Notes under the pieces: generated by a model | The model's database searches: none | Told to the model about the DNA's origin: nothing | The model's input: only the letters and a program-made list of their open reading frames with translations | Part shown: positions 1-46,386 of the stretch, one piece after another | Position numbering within the stretch: position 1 is the first letter of the stretch | How the letters are laid out: each line of letters opens with the position of its first letter | Translations under genes and position numbers: made by a program | Virus record (IMG/VR): IMGVR_UViG_2913167280_000002 | DNA from: a virus | Lineage: Duplodnaviria; Heunggongvirae; Uroviricota; Caudoviricetes | Length of the DNA stretch: 46,386 nucleotides | Direction: 5' to 3' (one strand)

Positions 1-3
1 CGT

Positions 4-29
4 TTCCTGTAAACCGAGGTTTTTGCGAA
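4..29. promoter_or_regulatory. Gin/Cin/Hin-type crossover site (26 bp, full)
   Basis: TTCCTGTAAACCGAGGTTTTTGCGAA matches the gix site as I recall it (TTCCTGTAAACCGAGGTTTTGGATAA) at 22 of 26 positions; lies directly upstream of the serine invertase gene. Confidence 0.75.
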
Positions 30-93
30 TTGCCTCTGTGTCGTCTGAACGATATTTTTTCCCGCTTTTAGCAACAATCGCGGTTTAGAAAGT

Positions 94-648
94 ATGCAAT
101 ATGGTTATGCGAGGGTGTCAACTTTTGACCAGAATTTGGAATTACAACTGGAGGCGCTCAGGAGTTCAGGATGTGACCGGATTTTTGAAGATAAAATATC
201 CGGTGCTAAATCAAAACGACCAGGACTTGATAAGCTACTGAAGGTGTTACGACCGGGCGATACGGTTATTGTCTGGAAGCTGGACCGAATGGGGCGTTCT
301 CTGATTCATCTTGTTGATTTACTTAACCATTTTTTATCAAACAACATTGAGTTTATTTCGATTACGGAAGGGATAAAAATTAGCACTTCAATTGGCCGCT
401 TTGCCTACACGATGCTGAGTGCAGTCGCAGAGATGGAGCGGGAAAATATGATTGAAAGAACGCGTGCAGGATTGGCGGTGGCAAGGGCTAACGGCAGGAT
501 AGGAGGACGCCGCTCAAAGCTGGCACCAGAGCAATGGGAACAGATCGGAAGGCTTATTGCGAATGGTGTTTCACGTAAGCGGATAGCGATTATCTTCGAT
601 GTTACCTTATCCACGCTTTACCGCAGGTTTCCGGCTGGGAATCATTGA
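94..648 (+). CDS. serine recombinase, DNA invertase (Gin/Cin/Pin/Hin family)
   Basis: N-terminal YARVSTFDQ catalytic-serine motif, resolvase core, C-terminal HTH; 184 aa; adjacent to crossover site. Confidence 0.9.
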   Translation: MQYGYARVSTFDQNLELQLEALRSSGCDRIFEDKISGAKSKRPGLDKLLKVLRPGDTVIVWKLDRMGRSLIHLVDLLNHFLSNNIEFISITEGIKISTSIGRFAYTMLSAVAEMERENMIERTRAGLAVARANGRIGGRRSKLAPEQWEQIGRLIANGVSRKRIAIIFDVTLSTLYRRFPAGNH

Positions 649-3965: not shown

Positions 3966-4082
3966 TATAGAATTATATAATTATATATTTATATAAAAAG
4001 TGCTTTACAGGTGGGAAAAAATTTCCTATGGTTATACCCGAAACCGAGCGATACCCGCCCTGGTTAAACCGGAGATAACCCG
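3966..4082 (+). promoter_or_regulatory. conserved promoter/leader module, copy A
   Basis: AT-rich octamer array, TTTACA (4004-4009), 17-bp spacer containing the GGAAAAAATTTCC inverted repeat, TATGGT (4027-4032), then a ~45-nt leader ending in GGAG-N8-ATG. Near-identical to copies B and C. Confidence 0.6.
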
Positions 4083-4463
4083 ATGAGCATGATTAAAATC
4101 CGCAAAAACGCTTTCCTTAAAATTCAAACTATCCTGGCTGGTTCTGTTGGCGTGATTTGCCGTTCTTCTTCAAGCCGCATCGATGACGGCTACGATGATG
4201 AGTATCGTGTGTCCTCGTGCGATGAGGCTTTAACCTGGCTGAAGGAGAATCAGGAACGTGCCCAGGTATATCTGGAAACAGAGAACGGCAATCAGATGTT
4301 GCGTATTAGCGGCCGTTATGGATTTGAAACTACATTCATTGCCTATTTTAATCAGGCTTACTTTGACAAGGAGCTGGCCTGGTACACTGATCGCATGATC
4401 AAAAGCGAGCCAGCCCCGATTACACCGCCGAACAATAAACCATTTTTATTCCTCGTTAAGTAA
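4083..4463 (+). CDS. hypothetical protein
   Basis: First gene behind module A; GGAG RBS. Confidence 0.45.
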   Translation: MSMIKIRKNAFLKIQTILAGSVGVICRSSSSRIDDGYDDEYRVSSCDEALTWLKENQERAQVYLETENGNQMLRISGRYGFETTFIAYFNQAYFDKELAWYTDRMIKSEPAPITPPNNKPFLFLVK

Positions 4464-4873: not shown

Positions 4874-5571
4874 AGTCTGAAATTTAAATCTTGCTTGGTA
4901 GGCTGGATTTAAAAAGACACCTCTTGATTGGGGCGGCTTTCTTGCGTCTAAAGATAATCAAATCTTTTTGCGCCTGCAACCCCTTTTTTACTGGTGCCCA
5001 TTTCAGACTCACGCTCGCGTCGTTGTCTTTGCCACTTCGTTGGGTTCGGTGTTTTTGGGCGAAGTGGCGCGCGGGTATGCGTACAAGGGGAAAGTGTGCT
5101 GACGCAAGCCAGGAACAGCGATCTAAACTAAGTCGAGTCTGAGAAAGGCAGGAGTGCGACAACTCGCCTGTGCTCTATGAGCAGAAGAAGGTATATCAGA
5201 CGACCAATGGCATGATTGTGGGCCACAGGGCGCACACGGCGGCGAAGCATTGGAAACGATGTGGAGCTATCTGGTGGCATGAGTTCCGGTACTCGATCTC
5301 GAGCTTTTTTTGATGCTTTTGAGAAGGGGCCGGAACTCCGGTAAAGGGCACCCTGTATGGGGGGAGGGGGGGTTGTGTCTGAAGGGTGGTTATCGGTTAT
5401 GGTGGAATTATGATGCGTAGAAAAGCGAGTTTGCTGCAAGCTATTGGGTCCATTATTTCTTTGTTTCCGGCAGTTGATCATTTTCGTCATATGGCGACAC
5501 GTTCGAGTATGGGCTTGGCGCGTGACGCTGACGCTATTCGAAAGGATTTTCAGAAAGTCTCTGGCGTTGAT

Positions 5572-5604
5572 AAGAGAGAAAAGAGTAAGGGGCCGTAGCC
5601 CCTT
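5572..5604 (-). terminator. rho-independent terminator after the antirepressor gene
   Basis: Stem AAGGGGC/GCCCCTT; T-rich tract follows on the minus strand. Confidence 0.5.
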
Positions 5605-5608
5605 GTAG

Positions 5609-6760
5609 TTATGGTCTGCTTTTCTGTGCCAGCTTATCAGCACATGTTTTTATCAGATCCTGTAGTGTCCTGGCTGGCAGGTTTGCATCCAGAACGCTGA
5701 GTATGCTGTTGTGATCAGCTTGGTCGACTACTTTGCCTGTCGGTGGTAGTAGCTTGAGCTGAGGATTCAGGTTTTCGTCAAAGCTGATAAGTGCTCTGGC
5801 GTTTCTGAGCAGATCAAGAAGTAAGGCTGATATCACATTTTCCTGAGTCATTGCTGGCAGATTTAGCGCCGCTTTGGTTTTCCCTGTTGCCTTGTCAAAC
5901 TCCTTGATTAGTTCCTTTCTGTAGTTCGGTTCCGTTAATAGCCGATTATGCTCTGTTGCCGCGCGGATAATCGTTTTTTCCTGGTACAGTCGTTTAGCCA
6001 GATCGCGCTCGTACTGTGTTTTTAACACGCTGCTGATAGCGTTAAAGGCTTCAATGTAGGCCAGCTTGATATCTTTCACGCCTGGACCGTCGATGCTCTC
6101 CATGAGCAAGGTAAATCCGTCTTTTGTCATGCGATAGATTGTTATTTCGCGGTCGCTTCCTTCCAGCGGTCGTTGCTCTTTAAAGAAGTGACGCGCCGCA
6201 GCCGTGCGAGGAATGCGTAGCGCATCGATGGCCATAACGATGGAATTGTTTGTGGTGCTGAATGCCTGGGCAACATCGGCTGAGGTTGTGAGTGGCTCGT
6301 TGTTGCACACTTTAATGTAAAACATCGGTTTGGCGTTGAGCGTATCGACAACCTCACGAGCATTGTTTGGCGAGACGGTTACGGTCGCGGCCGTTTGCGC
6401 GTTCTGGCTGAAATAGCAGTCTTCCAGCCGTTCGAATACATCCCACGCCTGATCGGTTTCGAGCATTTTAGCGTGACGTGCAGCCCCGCGTTCTGTCCAG
6501 AGGATGAGAGAGCGAGTTTTGGGGGAAATTTGCACCTCATTTTGTGACTCGTTTAAAACTAGTCGCAAATTTTTGAGTTCATCACCAACAGCTTTAAAGA
6601 AGTGCTTCCCCTCAATGAACCGAGTTTTATTTTCATGGTGATTTTGCTGTATACGGATTGCTTCTGTTCCATAAAGGCGGGCGAGTAGCTCAGTTGTGAT
6701 TACTGGAATCTGATTATGCAGGATAGGCTGTAGGGTGTTAACGATCGGAAGCGTTTTCAT
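5609..6760 (-). CDS. phage antirepressor-like protein (Ant/Rha-type)
   Basis: 383 aa; N-terminal region resembles antirepressor/Rha regulatory domains; preceded by an overlapping small ORF as in P1 icd-ant. Confidence 0.5.
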   Translation of the reverse strand: MKTLPIVNTLQPILHNQIPVITTELLARLYGTEAIRIQQNHHENKTRFIEGKHFFKAVGDELKNLRLVLNESQNEVQISPKTRSLILWTERGAARHAKMLETDQAWDVFERLEDCYFSQNAQTAATVTVSPNNAREVVDTLNAKPMFYIKVCNNEPLTTSADVAQAFSTTNNSIVMAIDALRIPRTAAARHFFKEQRPLEGSDREITIYRMTKDGFTLLMESIDGPGVKDIKLAYIEAFNAISSVLKTQYERDLAKRLYQEKTIIRAATEHNRLLTEPNYRKELIKEFDKATGKTKAALNLPAMTQENVISALLLDLLRNARALISFDENLNPQLKLLPPTGKVVDQADHNSILSVLDANLPARTLQDLIKTCADKLAQKSRP

Positions 6761-6948
6761 TTTGCACCTCCCATAACAACTTTGGTTACGAGGGAGATTT
6801 TTGCGTCAGAAACAGCGTTATCGTTGCTGGCGATGCGCATAGCTTCGCGCTCGATGATTTCAGCCAGGCGGAATTTATCGGCGTATGAGGCTTTCTTGAG
6901 AAGGATCTTTACGAGGTTGACGTAATAGTCATGGGGTAGGTTTGTCAT
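6757..6948 (-). CDS. small protein translationally coupled to the antirepressor (icd-like position)
   Basis: 63 aa; ATGA overlap with the antirepressor start. Confidence 0.4.
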   Translation of the reverse strand: MTNLPHDYYVNLVKILLKKASYADKFRLAEIIEREAMRIASNDNAVSDAKISLVTKVVMGGAK

Positions 6949-7113
6949 TGTGATGATTCCCTTAAAGGTTAAGGATACTCACCACCGTCAGGTTCCAATC
7001 ATTGGGTGGTGAGACGTGCAGGGTTGGAACTACCGGACACAATGACGAACCGGCGAGTCTTACGACTCCCCCGCACGCCCCACCATAATTTGGGTGTAGC
7101 AGTGCTTTACGCA

Positions 7114-7200
7114 TAAAAAAACCGCTAACGCGGTATGCGCCATTGTGTCTACGGGGTTCCAATCCCGGCCGTAGATTTTGCTACGGCTCGGAAAGTGTCC
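7114..7200 (-). ncRNA. candidate small regulatory RNA upstream of the antirepressor operon (c4-like position)
   Basis: Minus-strand terminator (stem ACCGC/GCGGT at 7121-7134 plus T-run); hairpin 7149-7174 whose loop carries GGTTCCAAT; no ORF. Boundaries approximate. Confidence 0.3.
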
Positions 7201-7245
7201 ACCAATGGCGCATTCATGTCAATACGGCGGGATTTTAACAGACTA

Positions 7246-7263
7246 AACCACATAGTGTGGGTT
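7246..7263. promoter_or_regulatory. operator-like palindrome (ACCAC-N5-GTGGG)
   Basis: aaccacatagtgtgggtt between the divergent antirepressor region and the 7398 HTH gene. Confidence 0.35.
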
Positions 7264-7397
7264 TGAATGCGGGGCTTTTAATTTTCTTGATATGCTAAAA
7301 ACGGGAATGTATAGTTCCTGTAAGGAATCAATTAGTCCTGAGTTATGATGTTTTGTTAAAGTCGGGAACAAGAAAAAATTCAGTATGGGGATAAAAA

Positions 7398-7937
7398 ATG
7401 ATTGAACTGTCAAAAAACTCATGTTTTTCAACCATTCACCTAATGATCATAAAAGAACTTAGGCTAGAAAGAGGTGTGCATCAAGGAGTACTGGCTCAAG
7501 CTGCTGGAAAAACACCAAACGCATGGACAAAGATAGAGAACGGGCAGTCTATATTAACAGTTGACGCCCTTTTTGGTGCTTTCACAGCCCTTAATATTAC
7601 TCCAGTGAATTTCATGTCATTGGTAGAAAATCTTATTCCCGAATTTAACCGTTATGGTTACTTCTTTTTCCCTGGAACAATCAGTCAGGACGAGGATAAC
7701 CTTTTACCTCTGATGCTGCGTTACTTTAATAGCAAGGGGTTTGAAGCATTGAGAAATAGGCCATTAGAAAGAGTTAGCATTAGCTCAATGGGATTCTCAT
7801 TTGGGGGCGGCATCCCTGTTACTCCAACTGCTGTAATGTATTGTTGCGATGAAGCATATAGAAATTGGGTCGATAACGGTGCTGATGTGGATAATCGAGA
7901 TTATCTGGAGTCATCAACAGGTCGTGGACTGTTTTAA
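7398..7937 (+). CDS. HTH (XRE-family) domain protein with C-terminal domain of unknown function
   Basis: N-terminal HTH segment GVLAQAAGKTPNAWTKIENG; 179 aa. Confidence 0.5.
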   Translation: MIELSKNSCFSTIHLMIIKELRLERGVHQGVLAQAAGKTPNAWTKIENGQSILTVDALFGAFTALNITPVNFMSLVENLIPEFNRYGYFFFPGTISQDEDNLLPLMLRYFNSKGFEALRNRPLERVSISSMGFSFGGGIPVTPTAVMYCCDEAYRNWVDNGADVDNRDYLESSTGRGLF

Positions 7938-7950
7938 TGAGTGAAGAAAC

Positions 7951-7982
7951 AAAAAAACCGTCCTTTTGAGGACGGTTCTTTC
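7951..7982. terminator. bidirectional rho-independent terminator
   Basis: Stem ACCGTCC/GGACGGT with an A-run upstream and a T-run downstream. Confidence 0.6.
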
Positions 7983-8374
7983 GTGCTGATCGGATTCGCG
8001 GTCCTTTCAGCATTACGTTGTTGTATAAACAACCACGCAAGCACAAGCAGCAAGTTGATTTTACCCAAAAGGTAATAATAGTCCACTATTATGCTTCAAA
8101 AAATTGTGGTTCTTGTTGTGTCTGCAAACTCACAGATTGTGGGTAGGTTACTGATTTTGTGAAAATAAACTGGTTTTTTCGTTTAATTTATTTCCTATTA
8201 CTAATCTTAAAATAATCGTAAAATACCTGTGGACCTTCCCGCCGATTCGCACCCGGGCACCGACTTTAGGGGAGGATTTCCTGTTGCCGTACATGCAAGC
8301 ACAAGCAGCCGTGCTTGCTCTCGCGTTGTTTTCGTCGGTGGGGATGCCGTGAAACGGCCTGTAAGGGCCATACA

Positions 8375-8497
8375 ATGAAAAAATACTGTATGTGTATTTT
8401 TATCGTTGTTACTGGGGCTTTGTTTACGCCACATGGGGAGGGTTGGAAGATTACTGATAACGCTCTGAATGTGACGATAAACATTAGCAGCAAGTAG
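8375..8497 (+). CDS. candidate small hydrophobic peptide (40 aa)
   Basis: MKKYCMCIFIVVTGALFTPHG...; AAGGG about 8 nt upstream; ends just before the terminator at 8503. Speculative. Confidence 0.25.
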   Translation: MKKYCMCIFIVVTGALFTPHGEGWKITDNALNVTINISSK

Positions 8498-8502
8498 CGA
8501 TT

Positions 8503-8526
8503 AGGCCCCTTCGGGGGCCTTTTTTA
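8503..8526 (+). terminator. rho-independent terminator
   Basis: Stem AGGCCCC/GGGGCCT, loop TTCG, then TTTTT. Confidence 0.65.
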
Positions 8527-8535
8527 TGGTTGAAT

Positions 8536-8718
8536 TTAAACGCTGGAGCGCATTAAGCCTTTCAGAACTGCTTCACGTACCCATTCTGGCCTGGTGGATA
8601 GCAGGGCAAATAAGCGACCAGCTTGCAGCCGTTTGAGGTCGGTTAGACGAGTTTTCAGTAACCGTGTATATTGTTTCTCGGACATAACAAATTCCCCTTG
8701 TTGTGTCGCGACGGCCAA
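8536..8718 (-). CDS. hypothetical small protein
   Basis: ORF downstream of the partition genes on the same strand. Confidence 0.3.
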   Translation of the reverse strand: MAVATQQGEFVMSEKQYTRLLKTRLTDLKRLQAGRLFALLSTRPEWVREAVLKGLMRSSV

Positions 8719-8747
8719 CAGTTGGCGCTGGAGGCCGTCACCTTCTC

Positions 8748-8996
8748 TTACTTCTGGTTGTATTGAGCCTTGAGTAACTCAAAAGACTTTGTCAGCACTT
8801 CTTTCAATGACATATCCATTGAGCTGGCGAACGTTTTGTACTCGCGTTTAAATTCAGGGTCGACGTTAAACGCCATTTGTGCCCCACCTGATTTGGTTCT
8901 GGTTGGCGTTTCAGTCGGGTCGAAAACCTGCGGTTGTTCGATCGATGGCGGTACGCCTTTGCTGTTCTTCTTTGGTGGTTTTGATGGTGCGGCCAT
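8748..8996 (-). CDS. ribbon-helix-helix centromere-binding protein (ParG-like)
   Basis: 82 aa, basic flexible N-terminus then RHH-like MAFNVDPEFKREYKTFAS...; AGAGGGGA RBS; directly downstream of parA. Confidence 0.55.
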   Translation of the reverse strand: MAAPSKPPKKNSKGVPPSIEQPQVFDPTETPTRTKSGGAQMAFNVDPEFKREYKTFASSMDMSLKEVLTKSFELLKAQYNQK

Positions 8997-9039
8997 GTGT
9001 ATCCCCTCTTATATAAATCTATAAAACTATAATTATATA

Positions 9040-9693
9040 TTACGCGGCAGTAGTCAGAGCCTCAAGCTGGTTGATAATCCCCTGAATAACGTCGTCTGCC
9101 TTTTTGCGTGGCGCAACGTATGAGCACTCAATGAGGCTTAAGCCCTTATCCTGAGCTTTGCTCAGAGCTGGCTTGTGGGGAATGTACTTATCGACAACAA
9201 AGTATGGCGTATTAGCCAGGTACTCTTGGGCTTCGATGTAGTCAGCTTCGTTTTCAGCCGCGCCGGAAAACACCATGCAAATTTTCTTGATTGGTACGCC
9301 CTTTTTAACGATGCCGTGAGCAGTGTTAACGGTGGTTTCAAGGTCATCGGTAGAGAATCGGGTTGGCAAAATAACCATATCCAGAAATTCAGATAGCTTC
9401 GGTACTGATTCAGATGCGTAGGCACCGCCATCAACGATAACCAGGTCGTATACTTCTGATTCGATGATTTTCTGGACTTGTGATGGCGTGCCGCACGGCT
9501 GCGCCGCGATTGCAGGTTCGATATTGTTGGCCATTCTGCGTTGTACCCAACGCGTTACCGTTCCGTTAAGCACATCCATATCGATCAGGCATACATTCCA
9601 GCCAGCCTTTGCATAAGCAACTGCTAAAGCACGGGCAATGGTTGATTTGGTTACGCCGCCTTTTCCGTTGAAAATACCTACAGATATAGTCAT
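9040..9693 (-). CDS. parA: partition ATPase ParA (small type Ib)
   Basis: Deviant Walker A GKGGVTKST; about 217 aa; GGAG RBS before the second in-frame Met. Confidence 0.8.
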   Translation of the reverse strand: MTISVGIFNGKGGVTKSTIARALAVAYAKAGWNVCLIDMDVLNGTVTRWVQRRMANNIEPAIAAQPCGTPSQVQKIIESEVYDLVIVDGGAYASESVPKLSEFLDMVILPTRFSTDDLETTVNTAHGIVKKGVPIKKICMVFSGAAENEADYIEAQEYLANTPYFVVDKYIPHKPALSKAQDKGLSLIECSYVAPRKKADDVIQGIINQLEALTTAA

Positions 9694-9714
9694 TTGTCGA
9701 GACTCCATGTGTTT

Positions 9715-9825
9715 GATTATATAATTCTATAAATCTATATTTATAGAATGAGGTAAGCATAACCAACTTTTGAGCGGATGAAAAGCACTTTATATAATTA
9801 TATAAATCTATAATATTTAAGCGGG
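9715..9825. repeat. AT-rich octamer arrays upstream of parA (candidate centromere and promoter)
   Basis: Two clusters of TTATATAA/TTATAGAT-type units. Confidence 0.4.
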
Positions 9826-9904
9826 CTGGCGCCCGCTTGCAGTCAGAGGTCAGCTATTGTTGATATCAGTTGATTTGCTAGCTGTCGCTGTTTACGTGAG
9901 AGGG

Positions 9905-10216
9905 TTAGAGCAGCTTCTGAGCGGTCGCTAAGAGGGGGTTTTCATCGAGAATCATGAGGCATACAGAAATAATAGCCCTGTTATATGCCATCAATGGCTG
10001 GCACAGCTTCGATACCGCTGGCACATCGTATTGTAAGGCCGTTTTGAGGCAGACTTTTTGTTCTGATGCCAGATGAAGGATAGATTCTATCCAGTCGATA
10101 TCTTTCTCATTATCAATGATTTGGCATAACATACACTCAATCGCTATGTTCAACGCTTGGATTTCGATTCCAGCAGTGATCAGAGTTTCGTTTTTATTGG
10201 CTGTATGTAATTCCAT
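9905..10216 (-). CDS. hypothetical protein
   Basis: AAGAGG RBS 6 nt upstream of ATG at 10216; operator palindrome about 35 bp upstream. Confidence 0.35.
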   Translation of the reverse strand: MELHTANKNETLITAGIEIQALNIAIECMLCQIIDNEKDIDWIESILHLASEQKVCLKTALQYDVPAVSKLCQPLMAYNRAIISVCLMILDENPLLATAQKLL

Positions 10217-10250
10217 GCGTAGCCTCTTGTATACTTTCACATGTTGTCAA

Positions 10251-10267
10251 AACCACAAAATGTGGTT
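10251..10267. promoter_or_regulatory. operator palindrome AACCACAAAATGTGGTT
   Basis: Perfect 17-bp palindrome between the repressor stop and the next minus-strand gene. Confidence 0.45.
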
Positions 10268-10308
10268 TTTTTGAGCGTAGAAATGCACGGCTTTCGCCGT
10301 GCTGTGTA

Positions 10309-10965
10309 TCATAACCAGTTGACAACACTAACTACGCGGCCCAGAACTTTATAACGCTTAAATTCCTCGTTATTCAGATGCTTAGTGTTCATTTCAGCAT
10401 CCCTTTCGGTTGACAGCATAACAGCATTGTCACCCGGTATGACTCTACAGTGCCTCAAAACAACCAGGCCATTTCTGTCTTCAAGGGCATAGATCCCCTC
10501 ATGAATCTCTGTATCGTCTGTATCAATCAGGACTTGGGAGCCAGGGGATATTGTTGGTGACATTAACTCATCGTTGCTCTGGAGAACTGACAGAGACGAT
10601 GGGTTGATGTTCTTGCTTCGTAGAATCTCCTGTTCTATCGCCAGCACTGGCTTTTCTCCGGCGTGCGATGCTATGTCATTTTTTATAGCTACAAGCCCAG
10701 GAATAACAGGAGCGTTAGTATTCTGGGGTGGGAACGGGTTATCTGTTAAGCACGCGATATAAGGCGCTGATGCTTTCAGGGCGTGAGCGATTTTCTTGAT
10801 GGCAGGTATAGATGGTTGTCTTAATCCGGCCTCATAGTTCTGCAAGGTGCTTAAGCCTATTCCAGTGACTTGCTGGAGATCTCCGGCAGTCATGCCGGAT
10901 TGTTTCCGTAGAGTCTGAATGCGCAGACCTATTTCTTTCTTGATGTTCTCGTCGTTGCTTTTCAT
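10309..10965 (-). CDS. CI-like prophage repressor (HTH plus LexA/S24-like C-terminal domain)
   Basis: N-terminal HTH (LQQVTGIGLSTLQNYEAG) and C-terminal S24-like region; divergent from the early operon. Confidence 0.75.
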   Translation of the reverse strand: MKSNDENIKKEIGLRIQTLRKQSGMTAGDLQQVTGIGLSTLQNYEAGLRQPSIPAIKKIAHALKASAPYIACLTDNPFPPQNTNAPVIPGLVAIKNDIASHAGEKPVLAIEQEILRSKNINPSSLSVLQSNDELMSPTISPGSQVLIDTDDTEIHEGIYALEDRNGLVVLRHCRVIPGDNAVMLSTERDAEMNTKHLNNEEFKRYKVLGRVVSVVNWL

Positions 10966-13542: not shown

Positions 13543-13658
13543 TCTATAAATATATAATTATATATTTATATAAAAAGTGCTTTACAGGTAGGAAAAAATT
13601 TCCTAAGGTTATACCCGAAACCGAGCGATACCCGCCCTGGTTAAACCGGAGAAATCTG
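13543..13658 (+). promoter_or_regulatory. conserved promoter/leader module, copy B
   Basis: Near-identical to copy A, with differences in the -10 (TAAGGT), the spacer and the last 7 nt. Coordinates approximate to within 1 nt. Confidence 0.6.
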
Positions 13659-14726
13659 ATGAATAAACAAGTAATTATTTCTGACTGGATCAACAACCCT
13701 AACAGCCTGTTAAGCACTGATACTGGCTACCTATTACGCCATGTTAATGGTCGTATGGTCAAAAGCGATGAGCACGAAACCTTTTTCTTTGTTGAAGACG
13801 ATGGGCGCATCTATGAGGATGGTTACTCTTATGAAGCCCAAACTGGTTGTATCCCTGCGGAGCTGGTGGACGTAACAGAAGATCTGCGCAAAGCATGGCT
13901 TGAACAGCAGCAGCGCGGAGATGATTACGTAAACACCTATCAGGAACGCCAGAACGCGCGTCTTGCCCGATATATTGCTCGTGCAGAAAAAGCCAGAAAA
14001 GAAGGTGCGGTAGCGCATAAGCGAGCGCATGACCTGTTGGATGTGATCCCGTTAGGCCAGCCGATTTTAGTTGACCATTATAGCGCGAAAGGCCATCGCC
14101 GCCGTTTGTCTAAAGCTGATGCGTTATTCAGAAAAGCGTTTGTTGAATGCGAAAGTAAAGCATCACACTACGAGAGCAAAGCCGCAGGTGTTGGTCGTAA
14201 TGGAATTTCGTCTGATGATCCTGATGCGCTATTTAAGTTGCTTCGTAAGCTGCAAGGCTGCATGAAGTCACACGTCAAAATGAAGGCCGCAAATAAGGCC
14301 ATTCGCAAATACAAAAAAGACCAATTACAGCAGCTTTCTGCATTAATCGATCTCAGGTTTACAGAAAGCGAAGCCAAAGAGTTACTGGCCGGAGATTTCT
14401 GTGGGCGCATCGGATTCCCTTCATACGCACTGAGCAACAATAACGCCGAAATCAAACGACTACAGAGCCGTATTAAGGAGCTTGAATCGGTCAAGTCTGT
14501 AACAGGAGCACAGCGCGAAGAATACGACGGCTTTTCTATGGAGATAGATCCAGAGGATAACCGCATCCTGTTTTATTTCCCTGGCAAACCAGAGGCAAAC
14601 ATTCGTTCGCTGCTTAAATCACGCGCCTTTAAGTGGAGTCCAACCCGTAATGCATGGGTTCGCAAGATTACTCCAAACGCCCTGGCTGATGCCCGATATC
14701 TGAAAGAATCGCTATTGAAAGCCTGA
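13659..14726 (+). CDS. hypothetical protein (355 aa)
   Basis: First gene behind module B; GGAG RBS. Confidence 0.5.
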   Translation: MNKQVIISDWINNPNSLLSTDTGYLLRHVNGRMVKSDEHETFFFVEDDGRIYEDGYSYEAQTGCIPAELVDVTEDLRKAWLEQQQRGDDYVNTYQERQNARLARYIARAEKARKEGAVAHKRAHDLLDVIPLGQPILVDHYSAKGHRRRLSKADALFRKAFVECESKASHYESKAAGVGRNGISSDDPDALFKLLRKLQGCMKSHVKMKAANKAIRKYKKDQLQQLSALIDLRFTESEAKELLAGDFCGRIGFPSYALSNNNAEIKRLQSRIKELESVKSVTGAQREEYDGFSMEIDPEDNRILFYFPGKPEANIRSLLKSRAFKWSPTRNAWVRKITPNALADARYLKESLLKA

Positions 14727-15447: not shown

Positions 15448-15698
15448 GTGGATCAAATTGTCGAATTAATGGCAATCGAATAGAGCCGTGTGCTGCATTG
15501 GCAAAGTCTCTTGAGCGTGATGCTGAATGCTCAGTAAGAAAAGGCTTACTGCTATACAAAATCTGGAATGAGAGTTTAACCCGTGGACCTGATTTGGTGA
15601 TGTTGCGTTCCGGTGAGTTTTCTAAATCACCGATTCGAGTTTCATTTTGCCCGTTCTGTGGTGAAAGTCTGAAAACGTGGGAGGAAACCAATGAGTGA
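15444..15698 (+). CDS. hypothetical protein with C-terminal CxxC pair
   Basis: GTG start with GGGAGGAG RBS; FCPFCG motif. Confidence 0.35.
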   Translation: MSGSNCRINGNRIEPCAALAKSLERDAECSVRKGLLLYKIWNESLTRGPDLVMLRSGEFSKSPIRVSFCPFCGESLKTWEETNE

Positions 15699-16227
15699 CC
15701 AATGGCGACCAGAAATTTGTCCGATAACCGGACGTGCATTTTTCATGTGGATTGAGCATCCAACATTGGGAAATGTGCCGACATATGGTGGCCCATTAGA
15801 TAGTTACACCATTCCAACAAAGGACGGTGACGGTGAGTTTTCATGTGAGCGTTACGATCATGATTTTGGCGGTTGGGTAGAAAGCGAATGTCTTGGGTTA
15901 TATCTGATTGATGATAGAGAACAATGCAGGGTCTACGAACTGGAGGAACGCATTGCAGAACTGGAAGCACGGGAAATAAAACCAGCCAAAGGTGAAGTTC
16001 TTGTCGTTGTATCTGGTTTTACTGGTTGCGGAAAAAGCGCCATCGCCGGGGAAATAGAAATCGCGATGAAGGCTATTGGTGTACCGGTTCAGTGGACTAA
16101 TGGTGATGCAGAAAAGCGCATGACCGGCGCTGACTGGCTGACAGCAATTGAGATGTACAAACCAACTGTGCGCATTGTGGAAGTTAATGTGCCACGCGTC
16201 GCTGGCGTTCGCATCAAAGGAGAGTGA
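15691..16227 (+). CDS. hypothetical protein
   Basis: Coupled ORF, 178 aa. Confidence 0.4.
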   Translation: MSDQWRPEICPITGRAFFMWIEHPTLGNVPTYGGPLDSYTIPTKDGDGEFSCERYDHDFGGWVESECLGLYLIDDREQCRVYELEERIAELEAREIKPAKGEVLVVVSGFTGCGKSAIAGEIEIAMKAIGVPVQWTNGDAEKRMTGADWLTAIEMYKPTVRIVEVNVPRVAGVRIKGE

Positions 16228-16228
16228 C

Positions 16229-16588
16229 GTGGAAATAAAACCAGAAGATGAGTTAAGTAATATTGTTTTATTTCCGGTAAAAGAGGATGACCCACGTAAT
16301 CAGGTTAATTTTCTTTATGAGCCATCGGAAAGACCATACTGCCATCACGCTTCTGTCCGGGTTGACGAAAAAGAGCGTCAGGTCCGCTGCAAAATCTGTG
16401 GTGCAGTTGTGGAGCCGTTTGACTGGATGCTCTCTGTGGCTAAAAGAGAAACCAGACTGGCAGATGATGTAAGGCTATTGCGCCAGGAGGAACAGGAAAG
16501 GCGAAAAAATATAGAAAAGCTAATTCAGATTGAGCGTAACGCGAAAGCGCGGATACGCAGGGCAACAAAAGCCAGAACTGAATATTAA
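16229..16588 (+). CDS. hypothetical protein with CxxC-type zinc-ribbon motif
   Basis: GTG start after AAAGGAGAGTGAC; RCKICG motif. Confidence 0.35.
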   Translation: MEIKPEDELSNIVLFPVKEDDPRNQVNFLYEPSERPYCHHASVRVDEKERQVRCKICGAVVEPFDWMLSVAKRETRLADDVRLLRQEEQERRKNIEKLIQIERNAKARIRRATKARTEY

Positions 16589-16633
16589 ATCAGCACTGTA
16601 AATAAAATTTAATCCTTAACCGGAGGTATATCT

Positions 16634-16846
16634 ATGTTAAATACACAGAAAACCATTAACGCGGAAAAATATAACGAGTGGGTAAAAAAATTCTCTGAGC
16701 AGATTTTTAAGATTACTGGTGACGAGAATGTAGCAAAAAATGAATTAGAGCCGTGGACACCTGAAGGAACCGACCCAAATTATTGCTGGTGGGAGGTTGA
16801 TCCGGTTGATGCTGCAAATGAAGCCATGAGTTACCACAACGATTAA
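16634..16846 (+). CDS. hypothetical protein
   Basis: GGAGG RBS. Confidence 0.4.
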   Translation: MLNTQKTINAEKYNEWVKKFSEQIFKITGDENVAKNELEPWTPEGTDPNYCWWEVDPVDAANEAMSYHND

Positions 16847-16908
16847 TGTCGGGATGCCGCCCGAAAGGGCGGTAATAAAAATGGCTGAACTAATCGGAGA
16901 ACAAAACG

Positions 16909-17097
16909 ATGAAAAACCGTAAAGCAAAAATTCTTTTGACCTGTAGAAATGCTCGCGGCATCCAGCAATGGTTAAAACTCAGTAACCGCAGAATGGGGCT
17001 GTTCACAAATACGGCTGATATTGTGATGTGTTCACTTAACAAGCCCAGCGCGGCGCAAAACCGCTGGAAAAACCACTTGCGCACTAAAGGAGAGTGA
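16909..17097 (+). CDS. hypothetical protein
   Basis: GGAGA RBS. Confidence 0.35.
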   Translation: MKNRKAKILLTCRNARGIQQWLKLSNRRMGLFTNTADIVMCSLNKPSAAQNRWKNHLRTKGE

Positions 17098-17098
17098 T

Positions 17099-17317
17099 GT
17101 GCCAACATTATTCAGGAAAAATTATCCGCGAAGAAGCAGAACGATAGAATTTCTGTTTTTCATTGTGTTTATCGTGTTGCTGATACCGATATCCCCGTTA
17201 ATCCTGGTCTGGGTAATCGGAAAATTAGTTGAACCAGTTATTGAGTTATATACCGACGTGACATCGGAGCCATTCAACGCACTGCACAGTAAAATTAATC
17301 CATATAAGGAAAACTGA
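17099..17317 (+). CDS. small membrane protein
   Basis: GTG start after AAAGGAGAGTGAT; one hydrophobic helix FLFFIVFIVLLIPISPLILVWVIG. Confidence 0.35.
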   Translation: MPTLFRKNYPRRSRTIEFLFFIVFIVLLIPISPLILVWVIGKLVEPVIELYTDVTSEPFNALHSKINPYKEN

Positions 17318-17318
17318 A

Positions 17319-17693
17319 ATGGCTTTTACCGACAAAGAAATGATTAAAGAAATCAAAGAACGTATCAGCAGCCTGGACGTGCGAGACAATATTGAGCGCC
17401 GGGCTTATGAAATAGCGTTAGCCTCGCTGGAAGCAGAACCGGTGGCATGGACTGATGACGAGGAACTGCGAGATGTTGAGCAAATTGGTTTAGGTTATTT
17501 ATTACCTTGTCCTCCAGATAAATACGCAGACCCGCGTCGTGTAATTCCTCTGTATCGCGAGCTGCCAGCACCGGTAGTGCCGGATGAAATGTATTGGCAG
17601 GATGCGCCAGTTGAAGGCAGCAGCAAAGCGGCTGCATACGCTACAGGCTGGAACGCCTGCCGCGCAGCCATGCTTCAGGGGAAAGGGAAGTGA
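17319..17693 (+). CDS. hypothetical protein
   Basis: Coupled ORF; shares an EPVAW segment with the next protein. Confidence 0.4.
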   Translation: MAFTDKEMIKEIKERISSLDVRDNIERRAYEIALASLEAEPVAWTDDEELRDVEQIGLGYLLPCPPDKYADPRRVIPLYRELPAPVVPDEMYWQDAPVEGSSKAAAYATGWNACRAAMLQGKGK

Positions 17694-17703
17694 TATGGCT
17701 ACT

Positions 17704-17970
17704 TTTACCAAAGAGCAATTGATTGCCCATATTCGTGAACGTAAGGAAGCGCGCCAGAGAATGTTGGATACGGTAACTATTAACCCCGGATTTCGTGAAT
17801 ATCTTGAAAGAGAGCTTGCTACAGATGAAATTGCACTGGCATCCCTGGCATCTGCACCTGTTGCATGGCTAGTTGGAGGGCGTTTGTTCACAACTGAGAT
17901 AGCTGCGGGGATGTACGCTAGTGAGGTGAGGAAAGCAGTTAAGCCGCTATTCTTTTCTGCACTACTGTGA
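17704..17970 (+). CDS. hypothetical protein (paralog-like to the preceding ORF)
   Basis: LASLASAPVAWLVG versus LASLEAEPVAWTDD in the 17319 protein. Confidence 0.35.
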   Translation, partial: FTKEQLIAHIRERKEARQRMLDTVTINPGFREYLERELATDEIALASLASAPVAWLVGGRLFTTEIAAGMYASEVRKAVKPLFFSALL

Positions 17971-18115
17971 GTATTGTTTTTTTATTGATCGATTAACCAC
18001 ATTTTGAAGGTTTTTTTTATGGGAAAACCTTGTTTTAGGTGGTAACTGGGTGTAGTGTTTCATTTAACGTAGTAAAACTGCGTTAAGCGATTACCGCGTA
18101 ATTTGTTGCTTTATG

Positions 18116-19643: not shown

Positions 19644-19767
19644 TACCGCCTGTGATTGGGTAAAGCCCATCTACCTGACTGATCACGACATCGATGTTAT
19701 GGACCGCCAGACAAAGAAAGATATTCTGGCTCATAACAGGGCATGGGAAATCAACTGCCGAAAGTAA
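19558..19767 (+). CDS. o-spanin lipoprotein (Rz1-like), overlapping the i-spanin gene in another frame
   Basis: Signal peptide with lipobox LIASC; starts inside the i-spanin gene in a different frame. Confidence 0.45.
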   Translation: MYSRVLTIWLMTMLIASCGSRGSVPVVVDTACDWVKPIYLTDHDIDVMDRQTKKDILAHNRAWEINCRK

Positions 19768-19936
19768 TATATATTTCTATAATTATATAAATATATAGTT
19801 ACAACATTCTATGCGCTTTTCTCATGGGTGCACGCATCAACCATGTTTGTCTGATATGCCGCCGCGCCCAAAAATCCTGAATTTATTGGCTGGGATTTTC
19901 GTGCGCGGCGCCACACCAGACAAACAAATCAAATAT

Positions 19937-20012
19937 GGCCCCTTAGCTCAGTGGTTAGAGCAGGCGACTCATAATCGCACGGTCATCGGTTCAAGTCCGG
20001 TAGGGGCCACCA
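19937..20012 (+). tRNA. tRNA with CAU anticodon (Met or lysidine-modified Ile)
   Basis: 76 nt; 7-bp acceptor stem, D-arm GCTC/GAGC, anticodon loop CTCATAA, T-loop TTCAAGT, encoded CCA; one G-A mismatch at the top of the anticodon stem. Confidence 0.75.
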
Positions 20013-20315: not shown

Positions 20316-20903
20316 ATGGAGGCAATTGCATTGTTTAATCTGATTTATGCAGATCCCCCCTGGGAATACAAAGACAAGTGTAAGGATGGGAATCGTGGCG
20401 CTGGTTTTAAGTATCCAACGATGAAAGCTGAGGAGATTGCTCGTATTCCTGTCTGGCAGCTTGCTAATCCTGAATCGTGTTTGTTGGCCATGTGGTGGGT
20501 TCCGACTCAGCCAGAAGAAGCGTTGCTGGTGGTGAAAGCATGGGGATTCAGGCTTATGACCATGAAGGGCTTCACATGGAACAAATGTGGTAGCCGACAA
20601 CCAGATAAGCTGGTGATGGGAATGGGGCATATGACTCGTGCAAACAGTGAAGATTGCTTGTTTGCAGTGAAAGGCAAACTACCGACACGTCTTGATGCGG
20701 GGATCATTCAGTCGTTTACATCGCCTCGTCTGGAGCATTCTCGGAAGCCTGATGTGGTCCGTGACAAGCTGGTAAAGCTGTTAGGCGATGTTCCTCGTAT
20801 TGAGCTGTTTGCTCGCGGTGATTTACCTGATGGCTGGCATGGCTGGGGCAACCAGTGCAACGGAGGTATCCAGTTGCATGATGCTCTCTGGCAAGTGTCA
20901 TAG
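20316..20903 (+). CDS. MT-A70-family DNA N6-adenine methyltransferase
   Basis: DPPW catalytic motif in LIYADPPWEY near the N-terminus; 195 aa. Confidence 0.7.
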   Translation: MEAIALFNLIYADPPWEYKDKCKDGNRGAGFKYPTMKAEEIARIPVWQLANPESCLLAMWWVPTQPEEALLVVKAWGFRLMTMKGFTWNKCGSRQPDKLVMGMGHMTRANSEDCLFAVKGKLPTRLDAGIIQSFTSPRLEHSRKPDVVRDKLVKLLGDVPRIELFARGDLPDGWHGWGNQCNGGIQLHDALWQVS

Positions 20904-21015
20904 AATTATATAATTATAGATTTATATAAAAAGTGCTTTACAGGTGGGAAAAAATTTCCTATGGTTATACCCGAAACCGAGCGATACCCGCCCTGGTTAA
21001 ACCGGAGATAACCCG
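20899..21015 (+). promoter_or_regulatory. conserved promoter/leader module, copy C
   Basis: Identical to copy A from the -35 region to the ATG, one substitution in the AT-rich box; TTTACA at 20937-20942. Confidence 0.6.
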
Positions 21016-21285
21016 ATGAAAGTACAAGACCGTGAAGTAGTAAAAAACCTCCTGCAATACCTGACCTCAAAAAACCTGACGGGCAGCGTTGAGTTCCGTG
21101 AAGCGTTAAAACATTTCAACGTCACTACGGTTTATCGTTGGGAAAACAAACATTCTGAAAGACCGTATGTGGTGGATGTTTTTGCGCCTGATATTGAGTG
21201 CGGTTTTGAGCGTCATTCGTTCAAGGAGAAACATTCCGCTGATGTTTTTTGTGAGGTTGTATGTGCGGCAGGAGATGATGAGTGA
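21016..21285 (+). CDS. hypothetical protein
   Basis: First gene behind module C. Confidence 0.4.
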   Translation: MKVQDREVVKNLLQYLTSKNLTGSVEFREALKHFNVTTVYRWENKHSERPYVVDVFAPDIECGFERHSFKEKHSADVFCEVVCAAGDDE

Positions 21286-40724: not shown

Positions 40725-40935
40725 TTATAGAACGGTTCAAGGGGACTCATGGGATAGTATCGCGTTAAAGTTGTATGGTAATGAGTACCTGTCTTATCTT
40801 CTTATTGATGCTAATACTGAGCACCGCTTTACGGTGCTTTTTTCTGCGGGAATTATTCTTAAAGTTCCTGATGCTCCGGTTATGCCAATATCAGTAAACA
40901 ATTTGCCTCCGTGGAGACGCAATAGTGTTACGTAA
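40717..40935 (+). CDS. small tail protein (P2 gpX-like)
   Basis: 72 aa with TVQGDSWDSIALKLYG pattern; TTG start. Confidence 0.45.
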   Translation: MDDYRTVQGDSWDSIALKLYGNEYLSYLLIDANTEHRFTVLFSAGIILKVPDAPVMPISVNNLPPWRRNSVT

Positions 40936-41926
40936 AACGCTTTTTGATGTTATATATCAGAATGTAAATATTACCGCTCATATGTCACCTGATGTTTTGT
41001 CAATGTCTTATACAGATAATGAAGATGGTCAGGTCGATGATGTTTCTATTATATTAAAAAATGATGATGGGAAATGGTCTGGAGACTGGACACCTAAAAA
41101 GGGTGATTTTATTGATTTGAGCTTTAAGCCTATAAATCAAATCGTCCTTGAGTGCGGGAAATTCCAGGTAGATGGCATAACTTGCTCTGGACCACCTTCT
41201 GTTGTTGAGGTGACTGCTGTTTCTGTTCCTGTTTCATCAGGCATTAGACGTGATTTAAAAAGTAATGCATGGGAAAAAACAACTCTTAAAGATATAGCAA
41301 CTTCTATAGCTAAATTAGCTAACCTTGAACTGTTGTTTCTTATTGATGGTGATAGTAATCCATATTATGCGCGTGAAGATCAAATGGAGGAAAGCGATTT
41401 AAAATTTCTCCATCGACTTTGCCAGGATGAAGGGTTGTCGTTAAAGGTCACTGATAGCCAATTAATAATATTTGCTCAAGAGATGTTTGAGCAAAAAGAT
41501 CCTATCGCTACGCTTACGTTAGGTATTGATGAGATAATCAGATATAGCTTTAGCACACAATCTACAGATTTGTATAAAAGTTGCACGTGCAAATATCGCG
41601 TACCTAAAAAAAGAAAGTCGCTTTCGTATACTTGGGTAGATCCATCCGTAGAAGAAGGGGCGAATCTTAAGATAAGAAAACTGGTAGCTAATTTAGATGA
41701 AGCAAAACGTAAGGCAAAGGCTGCTTTGCGGCTTAAAAATAGATATCAAAATACCGGATCTTTAGTATTGGTTGGAGACACCAGATTGGTAGCTGGTGTA
41801 ACTATAAATCTGGGCGGATTCGGTTCATTTTCTGGAAAATATCTTATATCGAAAGCTGTGCATTCAATTGGGGCTAGTGGTTATACCACCTCGATTGATG
41901 TCCGAAGAGTAATTAATGGGTATTAA
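40925..41926 (+). CDS. tail/baseplate hub protein (P2 gpD-like)
   Basis: 333 aa after the tape-measure gene; GTG start. Confidence 0.55.
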   Translation: MLRKTLFDVIYQNVNITAHMSPDVLSMSYTDNEDGQVDDVSIILKNDDGKWSGDWTPKKGDFIDLSFKPINQIVLECGKFQVDGITCSGPPSVVEVTAVSVPVSSGIRRDLKSNAWEKTTLKDIATSIAKLANLELLFLIDGDSNPYYAREDQMEESDLKFLHRLCQDEGLSLKVTDSQLIIFAQEMFEQKDPIATLTLGIDEIIRYSFSTQSTDLYKSCTCKYRVPKKRKSLSYTWVDPSVEEGANLKIRKLVANLDEAKRKAKAALRLKNRYQNTGSLVLVGDTRLVAGVTINLGGFGSFSGKYLISKAVHSIGASGYTTSIDVRRVINGY

Positions 41927-41928
41927 TT

Positions 41929-42549
41929 ATGAATGATTTAGAAACATTATTACGTCAGACTATAAGAGTTGGCGTTGTTTCTGATATTGATGATGGTGAT
42001 GTTACAGCAAGAGTTACTTTCGATGATCAGGATAACGTCACTTCGGCAAAGTTATCAGTTATTGTGAAAAATACAGATAAGAATGCTGATTACTGGATGC
42101 CAGATATTGGTGAGCAAGTTTTGTGTATCTTTCATCCCGCAGGGCCGCAACAAGGTTTTATTCTTGGTAGTTTTTATGATGAAACACAGAAGCCGCCATC
42201 TAATACTGTTAATAAACGCGTCATTAGATTTAATAACGGAACTCGTATTGAGATAGACAGAGAATCTAATTTACTCCTTGTTGATGCTGTCGGAGATGTA
42301 ACCGTTAAGGCTACAGGAACCGTAACTATTGATGCTCCAGAAACCATCATTACCGGAAATGCTACAGTTGAAGGATTACTAACCTTCAAAGGTGGAATGA
42401 AAGGATCTTCTGCTGGAGGTGTTGCAGCTACAATTTCTGGGAATGTTAAGGTTGTTGGTGGTGATATAGATGTTGATGGGATTAAATCTAAAGGCCACCA
42501 TCACACAGCTCAGGGGGAATACGCTCAGACAACGGAGGCTCAGGCATGA
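41929..42549 (+). CDS. baseplate spike/assembly protein (P2 gpV-like)
   Basis: 206 aa with C-terminal repetitive Gly/Val-rich region. Confidence 0.55.
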   Translation: MNDLETLLRQTIRVGVVSDIDDGDVTARVTFDDQDNVTSAKLSVIVKNTDKNADYWMPDIGEQVLCIFHPAGPQQGFILGSFYDETQKPPSNTVNKRVIRFNNGTRIEIDRESNLLLVDAVGDVTVKATGTVTIDAPETIITGNATVEGLLTFKGGMKGSSAGGVAATISGNVKVVGGDIDVDGIKSKGHHHTAQGEYAQTTEAQA

Positions 42550-45055: not shown

Positions 45056-46386
45056 GTGAGTAAATTATTATTTACGATGACTGACGCCGGGCGTCAGGAG
45101 TTGGTTAATGCCAACAAAACAGGAACAAATAAAGTTGAGATTGTTTCTGTTGGTTTAGGTAGTAGATATTATGTCACGTCAACCTCACAAACAAATATAA
45201 CAGACGAAATAAAACGACTTACCACAATAGGTGGCAAAGTTGTTTCCCCTGATACAATTCATGTAACGGCGAAGGATGATAGTAAAGATGAGTATGTTGT
45301 CCATACAATAGGATTGTATACAAATAAGGGAACGTTGTTTGCTGTATACTCGCAAGAACAAGCAATAATAAATAAAGCATCATCTACTATTGCTTTAATA
45401 TCAAGTGACATAGCAATCAAGACTCTTGATACTAAAAATATTACATTTGGTGATATTGAGTTTATTAATCCTCCCGCAACCGAAACTGTTGTTGGGGTAG
45501 CAAGATTTGCCAATGAACAAGAAATTGATGCAGGTACAGATGATTCCCTTGCTGTTTCAGCAAAGCGGCTTAAGCAAGCCATTGTGAAACATGAGCAATC
45601 ACGTAATCATCCCGATGCTACTTTAACCTCAAAAGGCTTTGTTCAACTTAGCAGCGCCACCAATAGCTCGTCTGAAACGCTTGCTGCGACGCCTAAGGCT
45701 GTTAAGGCAGCATATGACCTTGCTAACGCTAAATACACCGCACAGGACGCTACCACGGCGCGAAAAGGGATTGTTCAGCTCAGTAGCGCAACTAACAGCG
45801 ATTCTGAAACGCTTGCTGCGACGCCTAAGGCTGTTAAGGCAGCATATGACCTTGCTAACGCTAAATACACCGCACAGGACGCTACCACAGCGAAAAAAGG
45901 GATTGTTCAGCTCAGTAGCGCCACCAACAGCACGTCTGAAACGCTGGCTGCGACACCAAAAGCTGTTAAGGCGGTAATGGATGAAACGAACAAGAAAGCG
46001 CCCTTAAACAGTCCTGCGCTGACCGGAACACCAACAACACCAACTGCGCCAAAAGGTACTAACAATACTCAGATCGCAAGCACGGCTTATGTTATGGCTG
46101 CGATCGCTGCCCTCGTGGATTCGTCGCCTGATGCACTGAATACGCTGAACGAGCTGGCGGCTGCGTTGGGCAACGACCCGAATTTTGCGACCACCATGAC
46201 TAACGCGCTTGCGGGTAAGCAACCTAAGGATGCCACCCTGACGGCGCTGGCTGGGCTTGCTACTGCGGCAGACAGGTTTCCGTATTTTACGGGGAATGAT
46301 GTCGCCAGCCTGGCAACTCTGACAAAAGTCGGGCGGGATATTCTTGCGAAATCGACCGTTGCCGCCGTTATCGAATACCTCGGTTT
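45056..46386 (+). CDS. tail fibre protein, constant N-terminal part (P2 gpH / Mu S-like), 3' end truncated by the window
   Basis: GTG start after AAGGA; N-terminus P2 H-like; ...ASLATLTKVGRDILAKSTVAAVIEYLG conserved junction reaches the window end with no stop. Not in the ORF track (no stop; GTG start). Confidence 0.8.
   Translation, partial: MSKLLFTMTDAGRQELVNANKTGTNKVEIVSVGLGSRYYVTSTSQTNITDEIKRLTTIGGKVVSPDTIHVTAKDDSKDEYVVHTIGLYTNKGTLFAVYSQEQAIINKASSTIALISSDIAIKTLDTKNITFGDIEFINPPATETVVGVARFANEQEIDAGTDDSLAVSAKRLKQAIVKHEQSRNHPDATLTSKGFVQLSSATNSSSETLAATPKAVKAAYDLANAKYTAQDATTARKGIVQLSSATNSDSETLAATPKAVKAAYDLANAKYTAQDATTAKKGIVQLSSATNSTSETLAATPKAVKAVMDETNKKAPLNSPALTGTPTTPTAPKGTNNTQIASTAYVMAAIAALVDSSPDALNTLNELAAALGNDPNFATTMTNALAGKQPKDATLTALAGLATAADRFPYFTGNDVASLATLTKVGRDILAKSTVAAVIEYLG
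45636..45980 (+). repeat. tandem ~120-bp (40-aa) coding repeats in the tail fibre gene
   Basis: About 2.7 copies of KGIVQLSSATNS.SETLAATPKAVKAAYDLANAKYTAQDATTA; in frame and protein-coding. Confidence 0.8.
46368..46386. promoter_or_regulatory. Gin/Cin-type crossover site, truncated at the window end
   Basis: TTATCGAATACCTCGGTTT is the inverted counterpart of the left-end site core AAACCGAGG; 19 of about 26 bp present. Confidence 0.7.

Follow-up and report, generated by a model that had tools for sequence, protein, structure and literature searches.

The closest described systems are the G segment of phage Mu with the invertase Gin and the C segment of phage P1 with Cin, followed by Hin/hix, e14 Pin and p15B Min. 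In Mu the genes are arranged in the order Sc, gixL, Sv, U, U', S'v, gixR and gin, and the two chaperone genes have 528 nt (U) and 534 nt (U'). As a prophage P1 is a plasmid; its tail-fibre segment, Sv-U / U'-S'v, is invertible and adjoins the gene of a small serine invertase. Hin inverts a promoter and not tail-fibre ends, and Min acts on six sites. In Gin, Cin and Hin, dimers on two sites meet at a Fis-bound enhancer, cut the 2-bp core via phosphoserine, rotate by 180 degrees and rejoin the ends (PMC3798978, PMC4513852). The enhancer of Hin is 65 bp long, with 47 bp between the centres of the Fis sites and a distance of ~100 bp to hix, and the residues of Hin contacting Fis are Arg154 and Leu155 (PMC3798978). 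Phe105, Phe106, His107 and Met109 of Hin control the switch from dimer to tetramer; the inactive dimer is locked by Phe105, and inversion becomes independent of Fis when a smaller hydrophobic residue takes its place (PMC4513852).

The window, that is the whole analysed stretch of 46,386 nt, very probably represents a near-whole circular phage-plasmid backbone (~49.3 kb) that was cut at the two sites of a Gin/Cin-type invertible tail-fibre segment, with ~2.9-3.0 kb missing. The system is a Gin/Cin-type tail-fibre switch, an ordinary and well-known kind of host-range switch. Judged from the sequences, three differences separate it from the classical members: a more distant invertase (55-57% identity to Gin and Cin, vs 77% between these two), the outer half-sites and helix E of the invertase. 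An earlier note on this DNA had described a full 26-bp crossover site directly upstream of a serine invertase gene at the left edge and a part of its inverted partner at the right edge. Both observations were confirmed: the left site is unique in the window and lies 64 nt before the reading frame, and the partial right site comprises the outer half-site, the core and 5 nt. The interpretation drawn from them was largely supported. The coordinates are collected in Table 1.

Table 1. Features of the window with their positions, strands and the basis of the assignment.
Feature	Position	Strand	Basis or remark
Complete 26-bp crossover site, gixR-like, invertase side	4..29	+	sequence; 23/26 vs Mu gixR
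Spacer between site and invertase start codon	30..93	+	64 nt
Serine DNA invertase gene, 184 aa	94..648	+	Pfam Resolvase + HTH_7; Mu Gin homology
Candidate Fis-dependent recombinational enhancer inside the invertase gene	115..178	+	two Fis-like 15-mers
RNA features together	7002-7090 (-), 7115-7187 (-), 8229-8525 (+), 19937-20012 (+)		Rfam matches, tRNA-Met
Tail-fibre gene, constant N-terminal part (Sc)	45056..46386	+	translation; homology to NZ_CP139394.1 tail-fibre CDS
Truncated partner site, gixL-like, tail-fibre side	46368..46386	+	sequence; 17/19 vs Mu gixL

The window starts with CGTTTCCTGTAAACCGAGGTTTTTGCGAAT, and its bases 1-15 are the last ones of the invertible segment kept on the contig. 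The left site consists of the inner half-site TTCCTGTAAACC (4-15), the core GA (16-17) and the outer half-site GGTTTTTGCGAA (18-29); 23 of the 26 positions are identical to gixR of Mu, read from the Mu record as TTCCTGTAAACCGAGGTTTTGGATAA. The inner half-site is the same as in Mu, and so is the adjacent coding sequence, …LGLQETVN. At the other end the window closes with ...GCCGCCGTTATCGAATACCTCGGTTT, which includes the outer half-site TTATCGAATACC (46368-46379), the core TC (46380-46381) and, as 46382-46386, the first five nucleotides of the inner half-site, GGTTT. Complete relatives read TTATCGAATACCTCGGTTT(A/G)CAGGAA at this position, and gixL of Mu (TTATCCAAAACCTCGGTTT...) matches 17 of the 19 positions present. 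The core is TC at the right end and GA at the left, thus the two sites are inverted relative to each other. Mu shares the 26-bp length and the GA/TC core, and its outer half-site is TTATCCAAAACC in contrast to TTCGCAAAAACC and TTATCGAATACC of the window. The site of P1-like cin, cix (TTCTCTTAAACCAAGGTTTAGGATTG), has the core AA/TT and differs from the window's sites in the half-sites as well. For the subfamily of DNA invertases (Gin/Cin/Pin/Hin/Min), two 26-bp sites with 12-bp half-sites and identical 2-bp cores in inverted orientation are characteristic, and this arrangement was found here, with the right site cut by the contig end. Chance cannot account for a contig with both of its ends inside two 26-bp sites; the rough probability of such a placement is 3e-7.

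A scan of the whole window with the 26-mer at up to 3 mismatches returned the left site as the sole match, where shuffled sequences gave an expectation of 0; further full crossover sites were not present in the window at this threshold. The loose core AAACCNNGGTTT at up to 1 mismatch additionally matched at 6313 and 18018, which was treated as chance (~1.4 expected per 46 kb). The former, 6313-6338 (TAATGTAAAACATCGGTTTGGCGTTG), has a TC centre and 1 mismatch to the loose core, and its position is conserved in relatives; about one chance match per window is expected. Complete site pairs were present in ten relatives, and each relative has two sites only, as Mu has and unlike the six of Min. A site identical to the left one precedes the invertase gene in the related loci L001, L004-L007, L009, L011 and L017 and in the Yersinia phage vB_YpM_39.

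The invertase has the size of the subfamily (~180-195 aa) and its domain order, an N-terminal catalytic domain with Ser9/10 and a C-terminal helix-turn-helix, which it shares with Hin, Pin and Min. Pfam assigned the residues 3-135 to Resolvase (E = 2.6e-44) and 138-181 to HTH_7 (E = 2.9e-13). The nucleophilic serine would be Ser9 in the motif YARVST, as assigned from the sequence. Gin of Mu is the best relative with a solved structure (PDB 3UJ3, residues 2-181, ungapped, E = 8.8e-62; 4M6F also with E about 1e-61). Over 181 ungapped codons the identity amounted to 54.7% to Mu Gin and 56.9% to a P1-like Cin; the latter two share 76.8% with each other, above the identity of either to the invertase of the window. 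The protein is 100% identical to the one annotated as 'hin: DNA-invertase' in phage vB_YpM_39. From the core to the start codon there are 77 nt in the window and ~67 nt in Mu. A promoter scan of positions 1-900 revealed nothing upstream of 94 at a threshold of 9 of 12 matches. By eye a weak sigma-70-like pair may be recognized, TTGCCT (30-35) and TATTTT (53-58) with a spacer of 17 nt, presenting 8 of 12 matches.

In the plasmid NZ_CP139394.1 the constant part of the tail-fibre gene at the right end has its counterpart in the first 1,331 nt of the fibre CDS. It comprises 443 codons, starts with GTG at 45056 or ATG at 45077 and stays open to the window end without a stop codon, the translation terminating with ...AAVIEYLG within the crossover site. 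Complete homologues have 737-840 aa and contain PF03406. As in the switches of Mu and P1, the constant part is open through the site, and in relatives it reads into either 3' part, each with its own chaperone gene. With ~440 aa it is longer than the constant part of Mu (~170 aa). Three tandem units of 132 nt are located at 45631-46026, with 100%, 89% and 67% identity to the first copy, and encode ...GIVQLSSATNSxSETLAATPKAVKAAYDLANAKYTAQDATTA... The spread of fibre lengths among the relatives suggests a varying copy number of these units.

The element is a phage-plasmid, characterized by an IncFII RepA, a ParA, a P2-like contractile tail and a P1-type C4 immunity RNA. RepA was identified by Pfam at 830-1810; the genes for ParA, terminase, portal, capsid, sheath, tube and baseplate were assigned by collinearity with the annotation of NZ_CP139394.1, the closest complete plasmid (circular, 48,995 bp). 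The window is collinear with the positions 43034-48417 of this plasmid, followed by 161-40092, and the only part of the plasmid absent between the window ends is 40093-43033, 2,941 bp in length. The absent DNA comprises the tail-fibre gene's 3' part, then a 534-nt and a 528-nt tail-fibre assembly gene, one on each strand, and a tail-fibre 3' fragment in reverse orientation, after which the recombinase gene comes. Gene order and chaperone gene sizes thereby equal those of Mu. The claim of the earlier note that the invertible tail-fibre segment belongs between the window ends and is absent from the contig thus holds by synteny, the relative having a 2.9-kb Sv-U-U'-S'v cassette at this place. In the window's own replicon, the missing ~2.9-3.0 kb would join 46386 to 1 and would carry the C-terminal parts Sv and S'v with their own chaperones U and U', head to head; the piece would begin and end with CCTCGGTTT / AAACCGAGG. 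Window and missing piece together amount to ~49.3 kb, and the family has a size of 48-49.7 kb. The isolated Yersinia phage vB_YpM_39 (49,027 bp) shows the same architecture as the family. At least 80% of the first 1,900 nt of the window (98-99.4% identity) and of the last 1,987 nt (94-98% identity) were covered in about 26 complete plasmids of 46-52 kb, mostly from Escherichia. The family is abundant in public data, where the gene is annotated as recombinase or DNA invertase, and a literature search revealed no paper on phage vB_YpM_39 or this plasmid family. The pSLy3 group was considered as a family name and rejected; pSLy3 belongs to the SSU5 supergroup.

Several further observations concern the backbone. 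The stretches 5386-5627, 7265-7944 and 15449-17972 had no megablast match in NZ_CP139394.1 and seem to reflect differences in accessory genes. Above the gathering score, Rfam identified the C4 antisense RNA (P1/P7-type immunity), isrK and ryfA; a tRNA-Met (CAT) was also present. A direct repeat of 120 nt occurs three times with 89-99% identity (3967-4086, 13544-13663 and 20900-21019), and shorter AT-rich relatives of it lie at 8996-9041, 9717-9818 and 19762-19813. The repeat is composed of an AT-rich block (TATAGAATTATATAATTATATATTTATATAAAAAG), the pair TTTACA-17-TATGGT and a leader up to the ATG of the next gene on the plus strand. In NZ_CP139394.1 every copy terminates at a gene start, and the IMG/VR contig L021 breaks in one copy. 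By its layout the repeat looks like a repeated module of promoter, operator and leader.

Inversion of the segment was shown in a relative with an invertase identical to that of the window. A look-up of the exact protein led to one contig of 77 kb (GCA_901482685.1, CABEEY010000004.1) with two plasmid copies, L013 and L014, at a distance of 48,584 bp. The flanks agree in order and direction in both copies (99.9% identity), and between them a block of 3,048 bp is reversed at 99.97% identity; the inner flanks are exchanged exactly at the sites, and the outer half-sites are unmoved. The fibre is full-length in either orientation, with 801 or 816 aa, and a Caudo_TAP chaperone gene comes after it. 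Both orientations, a characteristic of the subfamily, also exist among independent records: the 534-nt chaperone gene adjoins Sc in five distinct relatives and the 528-nt gene in five, and a homologous cassette points in opposite directions in two complete plasmids. The ATCC 25922 plasmid had one and the same orientation in all of four independent assemblies (L004-L007), which is no evidence either way. The loci L010 and L015 are degraded phage-plasmid derivatives. An IS26-like transposase (rve / DDE_Tnp_IS240) is situated directly upstream of their orphan site and invertase gene (L010 8920-10555, L015 9066-10555), and the tail genes are replaced by other cargo, in L010 by APH, a dehydrogenase and an ABC protein.

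The break of the contig is probably due to a sequenced culture that held both orientations, so that the assembler was unable to pass the sites. Similar breaks occur in other assemblies of the plasmid family. The scaffolded record OU349839.1 has the segment, from CCTCGGTTTG... to ...AAACCGAGGTTTTTT, as a piece of its own between two runs of N, and a 13.7-kb contig in IMG/VR stops 30 nt beyond the crossover core. A 24-nt pattern of flank plus site had no matches in species-representative genomes; in IMG/VR it was present at three loci, one of them ending at the site. Contigs with the exact invertase protein had lengths of 2-5 kb in 994 collection blocks and 20-50 kb in 856 (counts only), which fits a frequent fragmentation. 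The two cuts lie at unequal distances from the core: on the right the contig continues for 5 nt beyond it, on the left for 15 nt. This counts against a simple two-orientation graph, which would fork equally far on both sides. Each window end halts just before a base that varies between the segment ends of relatives, GGTTT[A/G] and ACG[G/A]; in several relatives, including the ATCC 25922 plasmid, the base after GGTTT is A at one segment end and G at the other. A de Bruijn fork at this A/G, or a merging at k = 21 in the 25-nt perfect inverted repeat, was considered as cause of the cut points; each fits one end, neither fits both.

More than two kinds of junction in the sample would explain the asymmetric cut points more easily, and such junctions would arise if the Sv/U cassettes and the site region were repeated in a co-resident replicon, a P1-like phage-plasmid or a Mu-like, e14-like or P2-like prophage. 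Site and missing segment would then be real, and the contig would have broken at the repeat without mixed orientations. The cassettes are indeed widespread: for the segment of the closest relative there were 238 plasmid records with a match, many of them P1-like with ~92-98 kb at 90-95% identity, and the tail-fibre end of the window matches 275 records. In the 137-kb contig L012 (GCA_018023475.1, ABABOT010000011.1) a P1-like cin with cix runs via one cassette into the site and invertase of the family, which indicates that such elements co-reside and confuse assemblers. Nevertheless we consider this origin of the break unlikely. Both ends of the window stop inside the 26-bp sites and not at the borders of similarity to P1- or Mu-type segments, an element with the identical invertase does invert its segment (L013/L014), and the same break is present in other assemblies of the family. 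The mixture of orientations remains our preferred explanation for the contig ends. In L012 the junction extends over 5693-10555, from cin/cix (core AA/TT) through one cassette to the site (core GA) and the invertase, and the length of the contig is about that of a P1-like plasmid plus this plasmid. Either L012 is a cointegrate, or the assembler formed a chimera across the shared segment; as the cores differ, the junction is unlikely to be a product of the invertase.

The switching would follow the course known for the family. Dimers of the 184-aa invertase would bind the two inverted 26-bp sites, which share the asymmetric GA/TC core, and host Fis, if required as in the relatives, would occupy two sites 48 bp apart (~115-178) and assemble the invertasome. 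By analogy, the four strands would be cut at the 2-bp core through phosphoserine links with Ser9, one half of the tetramer would rotate by 180 degrees and the ends would be rejoined. The Sv-U cassette fused in frame to the constant part would thereby be swapped. A change of the host range would be expected as its effect, as in Mu and P1.

The 5' part of the invertase gene likely contains the enhancer for this reaction, in the stretch 115-178. Two Fis-like 15-mers, TGTCAACTTTTGACC (116-130) and GTTCAGGATGTGACC (164-178), both fit (G/T)NNYRNNWNNYRNN(C/A); from centre to centre they are spaced by 48 bp, and ~106 bp separate the nearer centre from the crossover core, which resembles the geometry of the Hin enhancer (~65 bp, 47 bp between the Fis centres, ~100 bp from the site, 5' in the gene; PMC3798978). 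Mu gin, P1-like cin, P88 and Kp4849-2 have their matching 15-mers at the same codons. The degenerate Fis pattern is loose, with 6 matches in the first 260 nt of the gene. The stretch has the top nucleotide identity to gin and cin, 66% vs 52-58% elsewhere in the gene, and among identical residues the codons are identical in 7/12 to 8/13 cases vs ~30% elsewhere (one-sided Fisher p = 0.04-0.12). Arg154 and Leu155, the residues of Hin contacting Fis, align with R153 and L154 of the invertase.

Helix E leaves room for another mode of control. The residues 101-108 are GRFAYTML, in contrast to GRFFFHVM in Mu Gin, P1-like Cin, P88 and Kp4849-2, and the positions of Phe105, Phe106, His107 and Met109 in Hin are occupied by Ala, Tyr, Thr and Leu. 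With RFAYTML in place of RFFFHVM the regulation may differ from that of Hin and Gin, and there is a small chance that it is looser than in Hin. At the extreme, the invertase would be independent of Fis and the enhancer, a naturally deregulated enzyme, and the 15-mers would be conserved only through protein-coding constraint. Alanine at the position of Phe105, together with the replacements of Phe106 by Tyr, His107 by Thr and Met109 by Leu, points in this direction, as hydrophobic residues smaller than Phe at 105 give Fis-independent inversion in Hin (PMC4513852), and the proximal 15-mer overlaps the codons of the catalytic motif RVSTxDQ. We regard this as rather improbable: both 15-mers retain the Fis-like pattern with the 48-bp spacing and the distance of ~100 bp to the site, synonymous positions at the 15-mers are more conserved than in the rest of the gene at the p values given above, and the arginine and leucine of the DNA-binding domain that contact Fis are retained. 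Natural proteins also co-evolve, and effects of single mutants of Hin need not transfer. A Fis-dependent enhancer at 115-178 therefore stays the likelier assignment. There is a slim chance that the 'phenylalanine switch' of helix E has been rebuilt in the lineage of this invertase and that the enzyme could invert with little or no help from Fis and enhancer. If true, this would be a naturally deregulated invertase with unusually frequent switching, and the frequent switching would explain the common breaks of short-read assemblies at the sites in this plasmid family.

A true loss of the segment, or a complete circle linearised at the site, with the ends joined directly and the phage left with a defective tail fibre, is hardly credible in spite of the degraded relatives L010 and L015: recombination between inverted sites inverts and does not delete, the palindrome ...CCTCGGTTT|CGTTTCCTGTAAACCGAGG..., expected of a direct junction, is absent from all relatives, the tail-fibre reading frame has no stop codon at the window end, all remaining phage genes are collinear with intact relatives, and the window plus ~2.9 kb equals the family size. 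The contig is thus not a complete replicon; ~3 kb with the receptor-binding ends of the fibre and the chaperones are missing, and calls of host range or completeness made from the contig would therefore be wrong. Contig ends that are inverted copies of a gix-like site are a useful signature of an invertible segment in draft assemblies.

In comparison with Mu, the window shares the two sites and Fis-like 15-mers at the same codons; its invertase is only ~55% identical to Gin, and the system resides on a circular phage-plasmid that has an IncFII RepA and P2-like tail genes, whereas Mu is a transposable phage. With P1 it has in common the life as a plasmid prophage, the layout of the tail-fibre segment with the adjoining invertase, the C4 antisense RNA and exchangeable cassettes, the segment being common to P1-like plasmids (~94 kb) at 90-95% identity. 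It differs from P1 by an invertase ~57% identical to Cin, a genome of half the size and a different replicon. The current understanding of these switches is unchallenged by the finding. The tail-fibre inversion systems of Mu, P1, e14 and p15B are joined by one more carrier, an IncFII-RepA phage-plasmid of ~49 kb whose tail is P2-like, and the same Sv/U cassettes circulate among this plasmid family, P1-like plasmids and Mu-like phages.
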